This document shows, piece after piece, positions 120 to 6,815 of a stretch of 6,947 nucleotides of DNA (position 1 is the first letter of the stretch; each line of letters opens with the position of its first letter). The position numbers and the translations under genes are program-made. The notes under the pieces are model-generated. The model was not told where the DNA came from. It did no database searches and worked only from the letters and a program-made list of their open reading frames with translations. The DNA comes from a virus (taxonomy: Duplodnaviria > Heunggongvirae > Uroviricota > Caudoviricetes): IMG/VR virus record IMGVR_UViG_2529292882_000008. The stretch is one strand, 5' to 3'.

Positions 120-557
120 TTAAACCCCGTTAAATGCTGCTTTAAACTCATAAGGAATAACGGAACCATCCGGTAATGTCAGTGCAATGTAGAGGTATAA
201 CCAGCCCTGATGTAACTGTTCCGCTCTGACGTTAATCGCACTTACCCGGCCCGCTGTTTTCAGCCATTCCAGCGCCTCTTCGGCATACCCTCTGGCGCGT
301 TCCAGCGTATCCGGCGTGGCTTTTTCACGTGACAACAGCCACAACCGCGAACCGATGGGGCGGTCGCGGTAACTGTCACCCCACCATCCACGGCGATCAT
401 CTGAACCATCCGGCAGGGTGTCAGAATCCAGCGCGCGCCGGTCGGTAAACAGGGAGATTGTCACATCGGTTGTCAGACTGTCGTCGGTCAGCATATCAAT
501 GCCATCCTGTGCAATATCGCCGCGTCCGTTCGTCCAGATAATGGCTAAATCGGTCAT
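120..557 (-). CDS. Baseplate wedge protein, phage GP46 family (Mu gp46-like; T4 gp25 / P2 W class)
   Basis: 145-aa ORF containing the DRRGWWGD motif region typical of the GP46 family as I recall it. Its ATG (557-555) overlaps the upstream stop in an ATGA arrangement, indicating translational coupling. Stop TAA at 122-120. Confidence 0.85.
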   Translation of the reverse strand: MTDLAIIWTNGRGDIAQDGIDMLTDDSLTTDVTISLFTDRRALDSDTLPDGSDDRRGWWGDSYRDRPIGSRLWLLSREKATPDTLERARGYAEEALEWLKTAGRVSAINVRAEQLHQGWLYLYIALTLPDGSVIPYEFKAAFNGV

Positions 558-1147
558 TGCATTGGCCCCGTGGTTCCGCCGCTGTCGCCACGGTGGATAT
601 GCTTATCCGTCGATTTGCCATTGATGATGGCATCCGGGGCAGTAATATTGCTGTCGAACTGGCTTTTACCTTTAACGCCCAGACCTTTCTGGATCTCAAC
701 GTCGCCGGTAAACGTGGTTCTGGGTGTATCAACGGTCATACCTTCATCAGCGTAAACCTCAACCGTTTTACAGGTAATGATACAGCGCCCGTCCTTTGTC
801 AGCCTGATACGATGCCCCTCGTGGTGGTAAATGCCTGCATCACCCGGTTCAAGATTTGTCGGGCGGTAGCGGCGGTCTTCCACCACAACAGCAATCCCCT
901 GATCACGTTGTGCGCCCACACAGGCAATCAGCGCCTCTGCGCCCGGCAGAGGAACGCTGAAATGCCCGTAATTTTGCAGGCGCTCCACTTCATCAGATTC
1001 CTCATCATCCAGCAGACCGACCTGCAGGTTCTGAACCTTTCGCCCGTCGTTAATCACGTTAACAACAGCGCGCGCAAGCATCAGGCGCACACGACGCATC
1101 AGCGGCATCAGCAGGCGGTTCATGGCGGAATCATTTACTCTTTCCAC
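554..1147 (-). CDS. Baseplate spike / assembly protein V family (Mu gp45-like)
   Basis: 197-codon ORF whose sequence (GDAGIYHHEGHRIRLTKDG...GDVEIQKG...HIHRGDSGGTTGP) resembles Mu gp45 / P2 V-type spike proteins. Start is ambiguous: GTG at 1147-1145 (GGAG about 11 nt upstream, overlaps the upstream stop) or in-frame ATG at 1123-1121 (no clear Shine-Dalgarno). Stop overlaps the gp46 start. Confidence 0.8.
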   Translation of the reverse strand: MERVNDSAMNRLLMPLMRRVRLMLARAVVNVINDGRKVQNLQVGLLDDEESDEVERLQNYGHFSVPLPGAEALIACVGAQRDQGIAVVVEDRRYRPTNLEPGDAGIYHHEGHRIRLTKDGRCIITCKTVEVYADEGMTVDTPRTTFTGDVEIQKGLGVKGKSQFDSNITAPDAIINGKSTDKHIHRGDSGGTTGPMQ

Positions 1148-2274
1148 GGCGGCGTTTTCTCCGGGTGTCTGCGATAATAATCTTCAACCAGCGCATCAAT
1201 ACCGCCGTTACTGTCGCCGCCTTTCCTGTTTTTACGGTCGCTTTCAACCGGCACCAGAAAGCCTTCGCGTGGTGCAAGGCTAACGCGGGTTTTCAGCCCG
1301 TCCTGGTCATTCAGTATCAGGGTGACTTTGCTGACCAGTAATTCCGTGGTTTTGATGGCATATTTCGAGGCATCAATAGTGACCAGCAGGTTCGGCATCC
1401 AGAGTTGCCCATCCTTGCGAGTCCATCCGTCAATTTCTGCCTCAAAGGTTATGGATTTTGCCAGTCTGCGGCGTTGCTCACGCAGGGCGCGGGCCTGTGC
1501 ATCCTTCGCCGTAATTTTGCTGTCAGCAATGATGATCATCGGTCTGTAACGGGTCACATCACTGTCAGTGGCGGTCCCTTTCCGGGAGACGATACTTTTC
1601 GCATCAATATCATCACCCTCAGCACCGTTTGCGCGGGCATACCCCTTGACGGTGTATTCGCTGAACCGGTCGCGGAAGTCTTCCTCAAAATCCAGTGTCA
1701 GCAGATTTTCTCCGAGAACCAGCTCATCAGTGGCTGTGCTGGCAGCCCGGCTGAATACCAGCTCTCCTGCGGCATTGCTGGTCATCAGTACACCGCGTGC
1801 GCGGGAGGCACGCACCAGCGCCTCATAAACGGTTTCTGAATGGTCCAGCGTAAAAGACGGAAACGGCGCGGTGCTTTCCTTGTCTGTCAGCTCCTGGCGA
1901 ACGGTAACGCCATAAGGAGCGCACAGGTCACGCGCAATCTGCTCCAGTGTGCGGTTTTTCCACTGCCCGCCACTGTAAACGGCAGCACAGTCAATCAGGT
2001 CAGCCGTTTTGTCACGCCCGGCAACAATGATTTTCATACTGTCAGCGGTCATCTGACGTCGCCGCGAATCGATATAACCGGTGCAGACAATCTGTCCCCC
2101 GATTTCCAGCGTGAACGCCTTCCCCGGTGCCAGCCCGGATAAATCCGTACCCGGTGGCACATTCACCCCCAGCTCAAAATATCCGGCTACGGATTCAATC
2201 GAGCGGGTGACAGAGACTGACGTCCAGCCGGTAAAAAGCCTGCCATCCGCTCGCAGCGTGACGGTATTACTCAT
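1135..2274 (-). CDS. Baseplate hub protein, phage late control D family (Mu gp44 / P2 gpD-like)
   Basis: 379-aa ORF with N-terminus [28 protein letters not shown], typical of Mu P / gpD-family hub proteins. Shine-Dalgarno GAGGTG (plus-strand 2279-2284) lies 4 nt before the ATG at 2274-2272. The start overlaps the upstream gene's stop by 8 nt. Confidence 0.85.
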
Positions 2275-3754
2275 TAATCACCTCAATACTGACACCACCG
2301 GGAACAAACAACGGGTTGCTGATACCGTTCCTGCGGGCCAGCCGTTGCCAGTTCCGGCTGTTTCCTGTGTAACGGTACAGGGCCACCATTGCAGGCATCG
2401 TCTCCGGCAGGCGGTGCGTTTCACTACCCGCCAGTTGCAGCCCACGTTTTTCCAAGTCGGCAACAACCAGCAGACGCAGTTGCGTAAGCTGAACACTGTC
2501 TGTCGAAAAGCCCTGCTCAGATGCCGTCAGAATGACACTATCCAGCGCCGCCCCCAGCATGGCAGCGGTTTTTCCGATATCGGACACACTTTCAAATACC
2601 GGGGGCGTGGCTGTACCACTGTCTGAAAAGGATACCGGTGAAAAGCCGCCGTCCGGGGTTATCCCGGTTAACTGCAACTGGCTTTGTGTGACCGTGGACG
2701 ATGTGCTGCTGGCACCACTGGCGATGCCGGTTGTTGTGACTGATACATCCAGCACCGGTGCGCGGGCGGCATTATCCATCTGACGGCTGGAATCCAGTGC
2801 CGCAGTCAGTGCCTGGCTGGCAGCCTCCGCCCGGTATGTCTGCGCCGCTGCCAGCATGACGTAGTTCAGTGTGGCAATATTTTTTTCTGCAACCGGGCTG
2901 CTGTATGAAGTGGTAATGGCACCTTGCCTGTCAGTGGTGGAGGCATGTCGGCTTTCGAACCGCTGCGCCAGACGGTTCCAGGTGGAAAATGCTGTCCGGG
3001 TATCGCATAACGATGAAACGCCGGACAGCGCCCCCATCAGCGAGGAGGCCAGCATGGCAGGCTGGTTAATCAGGCTGGTCACAGAGCCTTTCATCGCAGA
3101 AAGCGATCCCATCAGACCGCTGACAGTCTGCGTAACCCCCAGATTGTCCACCGCATCACTGATATCATCGATGACACCGGTGACAGCATCCATCACGGCG
3201 GTTGCCGCCGCAGTGCCATCTTTTACGGTCTGCCAGACAGAGGACAACGTATCCCCCAGAGAACCGGTTACAGCAACGGCCTGCGCAGATACGGCTGCAC
3301 TGGTGTCTGTCTCTGCGTCCGGGGCAGTATCCTGCAACGACGGATAAACGGTAACGGTGAACGTGTAATAATTCAGTTCATCCGCTTTAGTACGGCATTC
3401 CCATGAATCCACCATGACGTCCACAGTGCCGAAATCAGGATGCACCAGCTCACCGCTACCCGGAGCATCAAGAGCATCCATCAGCGCACCCGCTTCATCT
3501 CTGGCAGTCTCTGCGTTGCTGTTCAGAATGCAGACGCTGAATGTACGGGAGCGAAGCTTTTTCCCCAGGTCATTGACGCCGCCGGTATCACGTAACGGGT
3601 ACTCGCGTTTAACCAGACGACGTCCGCCAGCCTGTTTTTGCTCCTCAATGACGAGAAACGGCACGTTACGGAACGTGCCTTTGCCGGTTGTTTTCTTACC
3701 ACCGCCGATTTTATCCCGGACAGAATTAACGGCATTTAAAGCATCTTCAAACAT
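2267..3754 (-). CDS. Tail / DNA circularisation protein (Mu gp43 N-like)
   Basis: 495-aa ORF. The N-terminal ~120 aa ([18 protein letters not shown]...[19 protein letters not shown]) resemble the DNA-circularisation N-terminal domain of Mu-like phages. The central part is Ser/Thr/Ala-rich low complexity. Starts 4 nt after the tape measure stop. Confidence 0.8.
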
Positions 3755-3758
3755 GGTT

Positions 3759-5870
3759 TTACCAGCCTGTAATGTAGTTATCGCCCGCGTAAATATTCAG
3801 CCCCATACCATCCTCGGTGACGCGGGAACTGGTCAGACGTAATCCTTCGCCAAGCTCGACGCGCAGCGATGCTTCCGCATTCACTTTTTGCTCCTGCGGT
3901 TCCCTTTCCGGGGCCGTCCATTTCTGATACAGGTCAGTCACAAAACCGCCCAGATATTCCCCGGCGACACTGCCCAGCGTGGCACCGGCAACCGTGCCCA
4001 GCGGTCCGGCAAGGCTGCCAACAGCACCGCCGAGCCAGGCGCCGGCAGTGCTGCCAATTGCTCCGGCTTTTTCATGAGTTGATGCCTGTTCATCCATCAG
4101 AACGGGAGCAAGCTGGAGTGCCCCCATCACCGGACCGCCAAGACGTGACAGTGCACGACCCGCGCCTTTCCCCATCCAGCCCAGTGCCCCGGCCCCTTTT
4201 GTCACAACCCGACCAATGGCACTGTCTGCAAGTTTGTTTCCGATACCGGAAAACAACCCGCCAACGGTACGACCGGCACCAGCCAGCTTTCCGATTGTTC
4301 CCGTAACCAGTTGTCCGGCAGCACTGCCTGCAAGCCTGCTCAACAGACCGGATTTGCCGGGTAAAGGTAACGATGCGTGCCGTGTGGCACCCGGCGCACC
4401 GGGAGATGGCAATGCCAGTACCGGGGACGGTGCAGGTAATGCCAGTGGTTTCGGTGCTGGTAATGCGGGAACAGTGCGTGGGGCCGGAAGTGCCAGCGGT
4501 TGTGGCCCGGACAGCAATAACGGCTGGCGGGGCAATGCTGCCGGTGTTTTACCTCCGTATCGGGAAAATCCGCCATATCCACCGAACCCGTTGGGCCAGT
4601 TAGTCACAAAAACGCGCTGAACTGTCAGTTCCCGCAGTAGTTCTGTAGCAGGTAGCGCATCCGGTGCCGGAATGCCTGTCTGTCCATGTTTGCGTTTTCG
4701 CATCCAGCGCCACATACGACGCCCGGTTTTGAACGGATAGCTGGCAACCTGCCATGATGGCTTCGCCACGGCCCAGCCCGCCCTCAGTGCTTTATTGGCA
4801 AGCCAGACAGACACCAGAACAGCAGCCAGTTTTTTCAGGCTGACAATATTCTGGTCAACCCATGCCAGCGCATCTTTACCCGGTTTCAGCCAGCGCCATA
4901 ATTCCTGCGCCGCGATTTTTACCGTTCTGAACGTGGTCAGAAATTTCTGACCAATGTTTTCTGCCAGTGCGTCAAGCTCCCCGGATTTATCCGCCACATC
5001 GTGCCAGTTAAGCACCCGGCGCATCTCGTTCTTGATTTCTTCAAAGGGGCCGCTGTTTGCCACCTTTATGCGAAATTCAAGCAGGTTAGCTTCCATCTGG
5101 GCGAACATCCCGTCCCAGGAGTTCATCGCACTGGCCTGTGCACCTTTTGACTGTTCTGACAGCGTTCTGAATACCGTCAGAATGGATTTCAGACCCAGCT
5201 TGCCTTTTTCACTTTGTTTGCGGATATCCTTAACGTCTTTACCCAGCGCATCAGCCAGCGTCTGGTAAACGTTAATACCGTAACCGGTCAGCAGGTTGGC
5301 ATCCGCCGCTGTGATTTGCTGGCGGGCAAACATCTGTTTCAGTTGCAGTGAGGCACCCTGTGCAGTGGGTAAATCCCAGCCGTGCATGGCCCCCTGATCC
5401 TGCAACATGGTGATGAACTGCTTCGTCTGTTCATCCGTCATGCCAAAGCCTTTCGACGAGCGAATTTCATCCAGAACGCCGCCCAGCCCCCACGTGGTAT
5501 CCTTCGCGTTCTGCTTCGCCCAGGCCATCATTGCCTGCGCTCTGGCCTTATCGCCGTGATACAGCGAGTTCATGGCGATAATCTGCTGCTCACGCTGAGC
5601 GGCTGCACCAATAAACAGTTTATTGGCGGTGTAACCCACCCCAGCAACACCCAGCGCCCCGGCTGACAGCATTCGGAATGTACGGGTTGACAGAGAACCC
5701 ATTCTGTCAATGGCACCAGAAACGCGCACAACCTCCATACGCAGGGCACGAAGGGAACTTTGCCCACTACGGGACAGGGCGTTTATCTGGTTCGAATACT
5801 GGCGGGAACGCCGGGAAAGATTGCCATTAAGATCAATAATGACAGACGCCTTTAAGCGTTTCCCGGTCAT
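3759..5870 (-). CDS. Tail tape measure protein (Mu gp42-like)
   Basis: 703-aa ORF, the longest in the cluster, located between the chaperone and baseplate genes. The N-terminal half looks helical; the C-terminal half has a basic Arg/Trp patch, a Gly/Tyr-rich segment, LPAP repeats and a long glycine-zipper-like hydrophobic segment. Shine-Dalgarno AGGAAA (plus-strand 5876-5881) lies 5 nt before the ATG at 5870-5868. Confidence 0.85.
4386..4508 (-). repeat. Imperfect in-frame tandem repeats (period ~23-28 nt, about 4 copies) inside the tape measure gene, encoding (P)LALPAP-type repeats
   Basis: Plus-strand units ggcaatgccagtaccgg (4408), ggtaatgccagtggttt (4435), ggtaatgcgggaacagt (4458) and ggaagtgccagcggttg (4486). 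The encoded protein segment is [36 protein letters not shown] (about aa 455-495). Confidence 0.5.
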
Positions 5871-5884
5871 AGATATTTCCTGAT

Positions 5885-6055
5885 TTAACGGTGATATTGA
5901 GAGAGGGTTTTAGCCTGCTGGCAGTGCCGGAAAAAGCGGGACAGCGGAAGAGACAAGGCCCATTCCGGGCCACTTTTCAGAATAACGCCAATCGCTGTCG
6001 CCGCTTTCTCAATATCATTCCGGCACCGCAGCCACTCGCCCCCGTTCTTGCGTCA
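5885..6055 (-). other. Putative frameshift-accessed extension of the tail assembly chaperone (lambda G/GT-like arrangement); hypothesis only
   Basis: The +1 frame relative to the chaperone is open from just after an in-frame TGA (6055-6053) to a TAA at 5887-5885, about 55 codons (RKNGGEWLRCRNDIEKAATAIGVILKSGPEWALSLPLSRFFRHCQQAKTLSQYHR). It has no ATG/GTG start of its own and ends 14 nt before the tape measure ATG. Confidence 0.3.
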
Positions 6056-6449
6056 GCGATGCCGCCACAGCCATGTCGTGCATCTCTGTAGCCAGCGACA
6101 GACGCTGGAAGTCATCAACAGACAGCTTGCGCATCAGCGCCAGCGATAACGGGCCTTTGATGCAACCCACGCTGGCAATCTGTCGGCGCAGCATTTCCAG
6201 TCCCATCCGGGACGGGGAACTGACCAGCACCGGGCCTTCCTTGCTCATTACCAGCTTTTCAGCAGCCGCCTGAGCATCAATCAGATCGCCTGCGGTCAGT
6301 TCACGCAGTGTCACGTCATACTGCATTTCAGTCTCGTCACAGGTGCCGAACGGCAGGCCGTCTTTCAGTTTCAGCACACCGGACTGAAGCTCTGCCACAA
6401 TACTGTCACGCAGTTCCTGTGCTTCAGGACCTAAATTCATTTCGTCCAT
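6015..6449 (-). CDS. Tail assembly chaperone (Mu gp41 / lambda G-like position)
   Basis: 144-aa acidic ORF sitting between the tail tube and tape measure genes, the conserved chaperone position. Shine-Dalgarno AAGGGGA (plus-strand 6454-6460) precedes the ATG at 6449-6447. The assignment rests mainly on synteny. Confidence 0.65.
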   Translation of the reverse strand: MDEMNLGPEAQELRDSIVAELQSGVLKLKDGLPFGTCDETEMQYDVTLRELTAGDLIDAQAAAEKLVMSKEGPVLVSSPSRMGLEMLRRQIASVGCIKGPLSLALMRKLSVDDFQRLSLATEMHDMAVAASLTQERGRVAAVPE

Positions 6450-6458
6450 TGTTTCCCC

Positions 6459-6815
6459 TTATGCAATGCGTTTGCTTTGTTTTGCCATCAGTACCAGCGA
6501 AATTTCGCCGCCGTCGTTTTTCGGTTCATCTGCCTGCCAGGCATTCGCCATCATCCAGGTTTCACCGGTATCTGCCTGAAACTCTGCCGTGATGTTTTCC
6601 CAGCCGATGATTTCATCCAGACCGATATCACCACCGCCCGGAATTTTGCATTCCAGCTTTGCGGCACGGGGTTTACCTTTCCAGCCATAAACCCGCGAGC
6701 CGGTCACTTCTTCACGGGTGATGCCGGAAGGTGTGAAGGAGGCACCTTCCATCGTTTCAAGCTCCATGCCATTGACACGGATGAACGCCACCCCCTGACG
6801 CTGATTTCCAGCCAT
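6459..6815 (-). CDS. Tail tube protein (Mu gp40-like)
   Basis: 118-aa ORF immediately downstream of the sheath gene and upstream of the chaperone. Size and position fit myovirus tube proteins. Strong Shine-Dalgarno AAGGAG about 6 nt before the ATG at 6815-6813. Confidence 0.7.
   Translation of the reverse strand: MAGNQRQGVAFIRVNGMELETMEGASFTPSGITREEVTGSRVYGWKGKPRAAKLECKIPGGGDIGLDEIIGWENITAEFQADTGETWMMANAWQADEPKNDGGEISLVLMAKQSKRIA

Follow-up and report, generated by a model that had tools for sequence, protein, structure and literature searches.

Does the tandem repeat inside the tape measure protein (TMP) gene of a Mu-like Escherichia coli prophage vary in copy number among related phages, and do its units belong to the ruler of the tail or to a linker in which changes of length are tolerated? 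The locus lies in a 6947-nucleotide (nt) stretch of viral DNA (IMG/VR record IMGVR_UViG_2529292882_000008), referred to here as the window, which is the minus-strand-encoded tail module of such a prophage, and the question follows from a sequence-only reading in which the repeat was noticed. Comparison of allele sequences confirmed that the repeat is real and that it occurs in 2, 3, 4 or 5 copies among phages that are otherwise near-identical. It is probably a degenerate in-frame minisatellite in a non-helical linker of the TMP, the units of which are gained and lost in register and are tolerated, with a small effect on tail length.

The repeat block of the tape measure gene

The gene, the repeat block and its units (U1 to U4) are as follows, with all positions counted in the window:

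3759–5870, minus strand: TMP gene, 703 amino acids (aa), orthologue of Mu gp42 (assigned from the open reading frame (ORF) and its translation, Pfam, DNA identity and synteny)
4401–4505, minus strand: repeat block, aa 456–490, four in-frame head-to-tail units (sequence, translation, and homologues that gain or lose whole units)
4505–4479, minus strand: U1, PQPLALPAP, 27 nt, DNA CCACAACCGCTGGCACTTCCGGCCCCA
4478–4452, minus strand: U2, RTVPALPAP, 27 nt
4451–4428, minus strand: U3, KPLALPAP, 24 nt
4427–4401, minus strand: U4, SPVLALPSP, 27 nt
4428–4442 and 4452–4466, minus strand: two near-identical 15-nt direct repeats with a spacing of 24 nt, coding strand GCATTACCAGCACCG and GCATTACCTGCACCG (repeat search, 93% identity, 14/15)

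The units are contiguous and measure 27, 27, 24 and 27 nt, all multiples of three, as are the units of a coding minisatellite. U2 and U3 have the 15-nt direct repeats as their 3' cores, and degenerate copies of the motif lie on either side of the block (AALPRQP upstream and SLPLPG downstream). About four imperfect direct repeats of 23–28 nt had been described in the sequence-only reading, and the units agree with that description. The span then given, 4386–4508, covers the same block, but its low end was slightly too wide and took in non-repeat GAPGA codons, and it is corrected here to 4401–4505. The gene had also been called otherwise non-repetitive, and this holds in the window, where the sole other match of Tandem Repeats Finder within the gene was a trivial 2.5-copy 12-mer at 4801–4829.

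The identification of the gene as a tape measure gene was upheld by several lines of evidence. The 703-aa protein matched Pfam family PF20155 (TMP_3) above its cut-off (E=1.3e-15, 58.1 bits, cut-off 41), with aa 105–266 covered; gene 42 of Mu and of D108, which is annotated as encoding the tail length tape measure protein, has 90–92% DNA identity to the window gene; and chain g of PDB entry 9KI1 ("Probable tape measure protein" of the Mu virion structure) gave a full-length match with E=0. The gene lies between those for gp41 and gp43/N. An exact sequence look-up matched the window protein to EIG49556.1 / WP_000147076.1 from E. coli B799.

Copy-number alleles among Mu-like phages

Homologues were drawn from a search of 5.8 billion proteins, in which 120 clusters were listed. 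The great majority of these (97/120) comprise proteins of 690 aa with two units, a state shared by Mu, D108, SfMu and PhiR68_1. Three units are present in P0128, a 695-aa protein that lacks exactly KPLALPAP, falls into the window protein's own 90% cluster and was seen on 7 contigs. Four units characterize the cluster of the window protein itself (80 members) and three 707-aa clusters, the alleles with four units being that of the window, P0001, P0003, P0004, P0011 and L007, and five units are found in the 711-aa protein of E. coli TA447 (P0002/P0135), in which KPLALPAP occurs twice. Relative to the 690-aa proteins, the window protein has 17 additional residues at the repeat and lacks 4 aa (GGGR) 30 residues upstream, for a net gain of 13 aa. 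Outside the repeat the alleles with two to five units are at least 90% identical to one another, and all indels of units fall on unit boundaries. Copy number thus differs between homologues and does so in register, which is the in-frame gain and loss leading to length variation that the sequence-only reading had proposed.

The same events can be followed in DNA. In the three-unit allele (L005) there is a clean deletion of 24 nt between the 15-nt repeats GCATTACC[A/T]GCACCG, so that microhomology is evident at this event, and the five-unit allele (L006) has an additional 24-nt unit at the place where L005 has its deletion. The allele of Mu is 51 nt (27+24) shorter than that of the window, with the junction inside the common CCRCTGGCA. 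At least three indel events, of 24, 24 and 51 nt, are therefore discernible in unit register, and every variant allele is in frame and full-length.

A Mu-type TMP gene is present in 44 of 5426 complete E. coli genomes. In 39 of the 44 the gene is of approximately 2073 nt (two of these being 2074 and 2075 nt), in three it is 2112 nt (SE11, TUM9757 and PEC422) and in two it is 2445 nt; over positions 4330–4580, the window and PEC422 are 100% identical. The complete genes in IMG/VR included 12 with two units, one with four and one encoding 828 aa. A second large protein search, with only aa 395–538 as the query, returned seven fragments, all with two units, and no new alleles, word-based seeding being poor with a low-complexity query. 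No confirmed locus was obtained when one genome per species was scanned with the TMP as the query.

Two observations on individual homologues were made in the course of these comparisons. The matched TMP lengths in E. coli NZ_CP083503.1 (elppa5, 2075 nt) and NZ_CP028754.1 (A21, 2074 nt) are not multiples of three, in contrast to the 2073-nt allele, and these genes may be frameshifted copies in decaying prophages or the result of sequencing errors. In addition, P0040 (694 aa, metagenome/ENA) has a 4-aa C-terminal extension (…ITGWENHV) past the otherwise invariant C-terminus that plugs the hub in Mu.

A divergent cassette and an indel hot-spot

Two broader features of the gene enclose the repeat block:

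4341–4700, minus strand: divergent allelic cassette, aa 391–510 (binned DNA identity to Mu)
4368–4571, minus strand: indel hot-spot, aa 434–501 (gap columns in an alignment of 21 alleles)

The cassette has DNA identity to Mu of 42–74% and is sharply bounded, whereas the identity over the rest of the gene is 82–100% (88–100% except for the bin of aa 211–240). Judged by these sequence comparisons, the four-unit state belongs to the diverged allelic cassette. Recombinants of the two cassette types were also identified: the 707-aa alleles P0003, P0004, P0011 and P0136 combine a Mu-type GGGRR stretch with the four-unit repeat, and this points to mosaic exchange inside the gene. Derivation of the four-unit state from the Mu allele by a single recent slippage was considered and rejected, in view of the divergence of the whole cassette of aa 391–510.

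In the alignment of 21 alleles of 690–814 aa, every internal gap lies inside aa 434–501, and in the 828-aa allele, which was outside this alignment, the additional copies lie there as well. Considerably larger duplications occur in the hot-spot in Mu-type relatives. A 14-aa duplication (GVPVTARPAPLPxP) lies directly C-terminal to the PLALPAP block in P0021 (704 aa), and a 62-aa unit, GKSGLPGRLAGSAAAQQVTGAAGTLADAGRTVSRLLSGAGNRQPAPSPVVPVTPRPAPRPLPA, is present in two to three tandem copies in P0005–P0019 (766 aa), P0020 (814 aa) and L019:201-2684 (828 aa). The position equivalent to these duplications in the window is approximately 4356–4400, continuing downstream into 4170–4355; they extend the TMP by as much as 138 aa, or about six tube rings at 23 aa per ring, and the complete genomes of E. 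coli S6 and 1290 have the 2445-nt form. These duplications resemble the PLALPAP units in being in frame, in the same hot-spot and in the same protein family, but their units are far larger and reach over some of the Gly/Ala-rich helical region, and the window has single copies of them.

The proline-rich segment, a probable linker, and the layout of the protein

The repeat block is held within a longer segment of unusual composition:

4356–4550, minus strand: proline-rich low-complexity segment, aa 441–505 (composition, AlphaFold2/DSSP)

In bins of 30 aa, the proline fraction is 0.30 and 0.23 at aa 451–510, as opposed to 0.00–0.07 over aa 1–390 and 511–660, and proline is nearly absent from aa 1–360 and aa 511–570. 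The repeat units have 3–4 prolines per 8–9 residues, and such a high proline content is incompatible with alpha-helix. An AlphaFold2 model was built on the 21-sequence alignment and, given its mean predicted local distance difference test (pLDDT) score of 34.7 and predicted template modelling (pTM) score of 0.23, was used for the pattern of secondary structure only. At very low confidence, DSSP assigned helices up to and including aa 414, coil to aa 415–509, helices to aa 510–652 and strands to aa 681–702, in agreement with the composition. Both the composition (23–30% proline at aa 451–510) and the coil of the low-confidence model support the earlier description of the segment as proline-rich and non-helical. 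That it serves as a linker or hinge and does not belong to the ruler, as was further suggested, is plausible, as the alignments place the segment in a divergent cassette and in the only part of the protein that tolerates indels.

N-terminal to the linker are the TMP_3 domain, a moderately hydrophobic helix at approximately aa 345–369, a strongly basic patch and a VFVTNWP motif; C-terminal to it are Gly/Ala-rich helices and the last ~17 residues, which form the baseplate-hub plug in the Mu structure. Around the linker we also noted the hydrophobic helix, followed by the basic patch, and a long Gly/Ala-rich region, with stretches at 3864–3956 (aa 639–669) and 4788–4836 (aa 345–361), and in that region a Gly-zipper Pfam match at aa 605–642 that was sub-threshold (E=0.0024). 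An arrangement of this kind recalls the membrane-active regions that have been proposed in other TMPs. In a set of 125 full-length distant TMP_3 relatives (representatives at 50% identity), only four reach at least 9 prolines per 30 residues, and many have a Pro/Lys/Gly low-complexity stretch that corresponds in relative position and follows a V(F/Y)VxNWP motif. From these alignments, a variable linker at this position looks like a feature of the family, and the PLALPAP repeat like one specific to the Mu lineage.

Probable origin of the copy-number series and its possible effect on the tail

The explanation that we favor sees in the block a degenerate in-frame minisatellite, short (4 × 24–27 nt) and encoding x-P-x-L-A-L-P-A-P units, which would reside in a proline-rich non-helical linker joining the helical N-terminal part of the TMP to its glycine-rich C-terminal part. 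Deletion or duplication between short, close direct repeats occurs by replication slippage or unequal recombination. In the TMP gene the changes are in register, with microhomology at the 24-nt event, and on this background we infer that units are gained and lost by one of these two processes, which the data cannot separate, acting between the conserved cores (CTGGCATTACCNGCACCG). The 15-nt repeat pair probably served as substrate for both 24-nt events, deletion and duplication. Across the units, the codons of the LALPAP core differ mostly synonymously (proportion of synonymous differences (pS) 0.64 versus a proportion of nonsynonymous differences (pN) of 0.12), which suggests that the units are old and their peptide conserved; judged from the sequences of the units, only U2 and U3 (pS 0.34) have kept enough DNA similarity for active slippage. 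The outcome would be the natural series of two, three, four and five units. As the linker is the one region that accepts indels, gains and losses of units would be tolerated there and persist. A single unit amounts to only a fraction of a ring, so that its gain or loss would probably be absorbed as slack or alter the tail by one ring at most. Phase variation at a contingency locus was also considered and was rejected, given that the 24- and 27-nt units lie inside the reading frame and that all alleles are in frame.

Several observations weigh against this explanation. With respect to the mechanism, the difference between two and four units may be a product of old divergence and recombination instead of recent slippage, and the additional unit of L006 differs from its neighbor at 3 of 24 nt and is as such not a fresh duplication. 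The contrast between pS and pN in the LALPAP core is biased in that the units were recognized by amino-acid similarity. With respect to the linker, the AlphaFold2 model is too poor to prove structure and is weak evidence. Finally, the support for a repeat from the window sequence itself is limited. With a minimum score of 30 over the entire window, Tandem Repeats Finder gave no report at the locus, the repeat being too short and degenerate for it; the direct-repeat search at the block found only pairs of 11–15 nt with spacings of 24 and 27 nt, and DNA identity between units is 11–17/24 (46–71%). A fixed-lag protein self-match test was not significant (5089/20000 shuffles), because the spacing of the units alternates between 9, 8 and 9. 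The commonest 3-mer, ALP, which is present five times, was matched in 460 of 20000 composition-preserving shuffles of aa 441–505 (p≈0.023, weak), a 4-mer test by the same approach was marginal (p≈0.048), and ALPxP ×4, a motif chosen post hoc, was reached in 1/20000 shuffles. In a stretch so rich in Pro, Ala and Leu some apparent periodicity is expected by chance. It is the comparison of alleles that confirms the repeat, the intrinsic statistics being modest.

A first alternative is that the block is a true ruler element, in which each unit adds a defined length of TMP, the number of copies together with the 14- and 62-aa duplications sets the number of rings, and the allelic series reflects selection for tail length. 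A stretch in the polyproline-II conformation extends by ~3.1 Å per residue. The Mu tail has 30 rings of tube and sheath with a rise of ~35 Å and a trimeric TMP (PMC11915804), and from this geometry there are ~23 aa per ring. The alleles of the Mu family extend from 690 to 828 aa, with all variation through the linker region, which at 23 aa per ring predicts tails of approximately 30 to 36 rings, and were the units extended as polyproline-II (~3 Å per residue), the two extra units of the window allele (17 residues) would amount to ~1.5 rings, part of which is offset by the upstream deletion of 4 aa. However, one unit (8–9 aa) corresponds to a non-integral fraction of a ring, ~0.35–0.4 at 1.5 Å per residue or ~0.7–0.8 as polyproline-II, whereas tails grow by whole rings; the deletion leaves the window allele with a net +13 aa, or ~0.56 ring at 1.5 Å per residue; and the 690-aa form dominates (39/44 complete genomes), with no sign of active tuning of length. 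For these reasons we regard a role in the ruler as rather unlikely.

A second group of explanations assigns a function to the units themselves. In its broader form, which we consider quite unlikely, the units are a functional module, either a polyproline spacer or a docking motif, between the tube-retained N-terminal part and the membrane-active C-terminal part of the TMP, and the copies and duplications tune the reach across the envelope or the length of the tail by the ring. In its narrower form the PxLALPAP units are functional peptide motifs that serve as docking sites for the gp41/gp41.5 chaperone or the tube lumen, or as a rigid polyproline spacer after ejection, acting when the TMP leaves the tube and meets the periplasm and inner membrane, with copy number tuning reach or avidity. 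The conservation of the LALPAP protein core while its codons are near synonymous saturation speaks for such motifs, as do a core that is invariant or nearly so across alleles and the location of the segment, which has a hydrophobic helix and basic patch on one side and the Gly-zipper-like region (a match below cut-off) on the other, an arrangement resembling that of T4 gp29. On the other hand, the pN/pS figure carries the ascertainment bias described above, strong proline enrichment at this place in only 4/125 full-length relatives argues that there is no family-wide requirement, and copy number ranges freely from two to five; taken together, these points make peptide motifs of this kind very unlikely.

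The last possibility, that there is no true repeat and that generic disordered-region indels have accumulated in a Pro/Ala/Leu-rich low-complexity linker with chance periodicity, would accommodate the negative Tandem Repeats Finder and fixed-lag results, the unit DNA identity of 46–71% and the marginal p values of 0.023 and 0.048, but it is highly improbable and is largely refuted by the unit-register indels in the allele sequences, since three independent indels (24, 24 and 51 = 27+24 nt) match unit lengths and boundaries exactly, one of them is flanked by 15-nt direct repeats identical at 14/15 positions, and the post-hoc ALPxP ×4 arose in only 1/20000 shuffles.

Comparison with other tape measure proteins

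The closest known counterpart of the window protein is Mu gp42 (NP_050646.1), which is encoded by the same gene in the same position and has 92% protein identity overall and ~100% outside aa 391–510. The two proteins share the PQPLALPAP...PVLALPxP motif and the C-terminal hub-binding tail, and they differ in that Mu gp42 has two units in 690 aa whereas the window protein has four in 703 aa (17 aa more at the repeat and 4 aa fewer in the Gly/Arg stretch).

In the TMPs of lambda (gpH), lactococcal phage TP901-1 and mycobacteriophages, in-frame repeats and engineered duplications or deletions are located in the helical ruler, and changes in them experimentally alter tail length. Like the window block, the repeats of siphophage TMPs are tandem in-frame units whose length variation has been ascribed to slippage or recombination and which could serve to change the length of the tail. 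They differ from it in lying in a helical ruler and having a measured effect on the tail, while the window units are proline-rich and belong to a myophage; the block is not a repeat of the helical-ruler kind, as its proline content excludes helix. In-frame variation of TMP repeats is thus of an already known kind, and the block is an ordinary coding repeat polymorphism.

In the Mu virion structure, gp42 occupies the lumen of the tube and only residues 674–690, bound to the hub and spike, were modelled (PMC11915804); the repeat region is outside this modelled part. Tandem repeats of TMPs in general have been reviewed (PMC13585406), and the TMPs of myoviruses are typically without detectable tandem repeats (PMC13585406). 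Against this background, it is mildly unusual for the lineage of Mu, the archetypal myophage, to have a polymorphic repeat. In the TMP of T4, gp29, a region rich in proline is reported to lie between the coiled-coil and transmembrane segments (bioRxiv 10.64898/2026.03.06.709160). Like the Mu-type TMP, gp29 belongs to a contractile tail and has a Pro-rich interdomain stretch, with a helical part on its N-terminal side and a membrane-active part on the other. There is no detectable sequence relation between the two, the Pro stretch of the Mu-type proteins comes after and not before the first hydrophobic helix, and no repeat structure or copy-number polymorphism has been reported for gp29.

Genomic setting

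The other genes of the tail module in the window are as follows:

6459–6815, minus strand: tail tube (PF10618)
6015–6449, minus strand: gp41 chaperone (PF23746)
2267–3754, minus strand: gp43/N (PF07157)
1135–2274, minus strand: gp44 hub
554–1147, minus strand: gp45 spike
120–557, minus strand: gp46

On the minus strand the order is tube, gp41, TMP, gp43/N, gp44, gp45 and gp46, the same as the annotated order in Mu, and the TMP gene has its expected position in a contractile-tail module, with the tail assembly chaperone on one side and the baseplate hub/initiator genes on the other. A 144-nt gap lies between gp41 and the start of the TMP gene (5871–6014, minus strand), where gene 41.5 is annotated in D108. 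The gap and the end of gp41 are covered by an ORF of ~55 codons in a different frame, which is consistent with a frameshift-extended tail chaperone of the G/GT type; a simple search for a canonical XXXYYYZ slippery heptamer for such a frameshift of gp41 into 5871–6014 found none. The ORFs that overlap the repeat block (4216–4620, plus strand; 4373–4603, plus strand; and 4340–4582, minus strand in another frame) were read as by-products of a GC-rich repeat in a well-supported gene.

Significance for Mu-type phages

Mu is the model contractile phage and its tail has been solved, so that with alleles differing in a single linker it can be asked how much of the TMP constitutes the ruler in a myophage, and which portions. 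The available series comprises TMPs of 690, 695, 703, 707 and 711 aa, which differ through 8–9-aa units, and of 704, 766, 814 and 828 aa, which arose through the larger duplications, and it would permit a test of how non-integral changes in length translate into whole rings. Were the region part of the ruler, phages with the 766–828-aa alleles should have visibly longer tails; if the units instead form a functional module, the 690–828-aa alleles of the Mu family would represent a natural adaptive series. For annotation, aa 434–501 of Mu-type TMPs are best regarded as a hypervariable, recombining region, and length differences there between prophages should not be taken for assembly errors.

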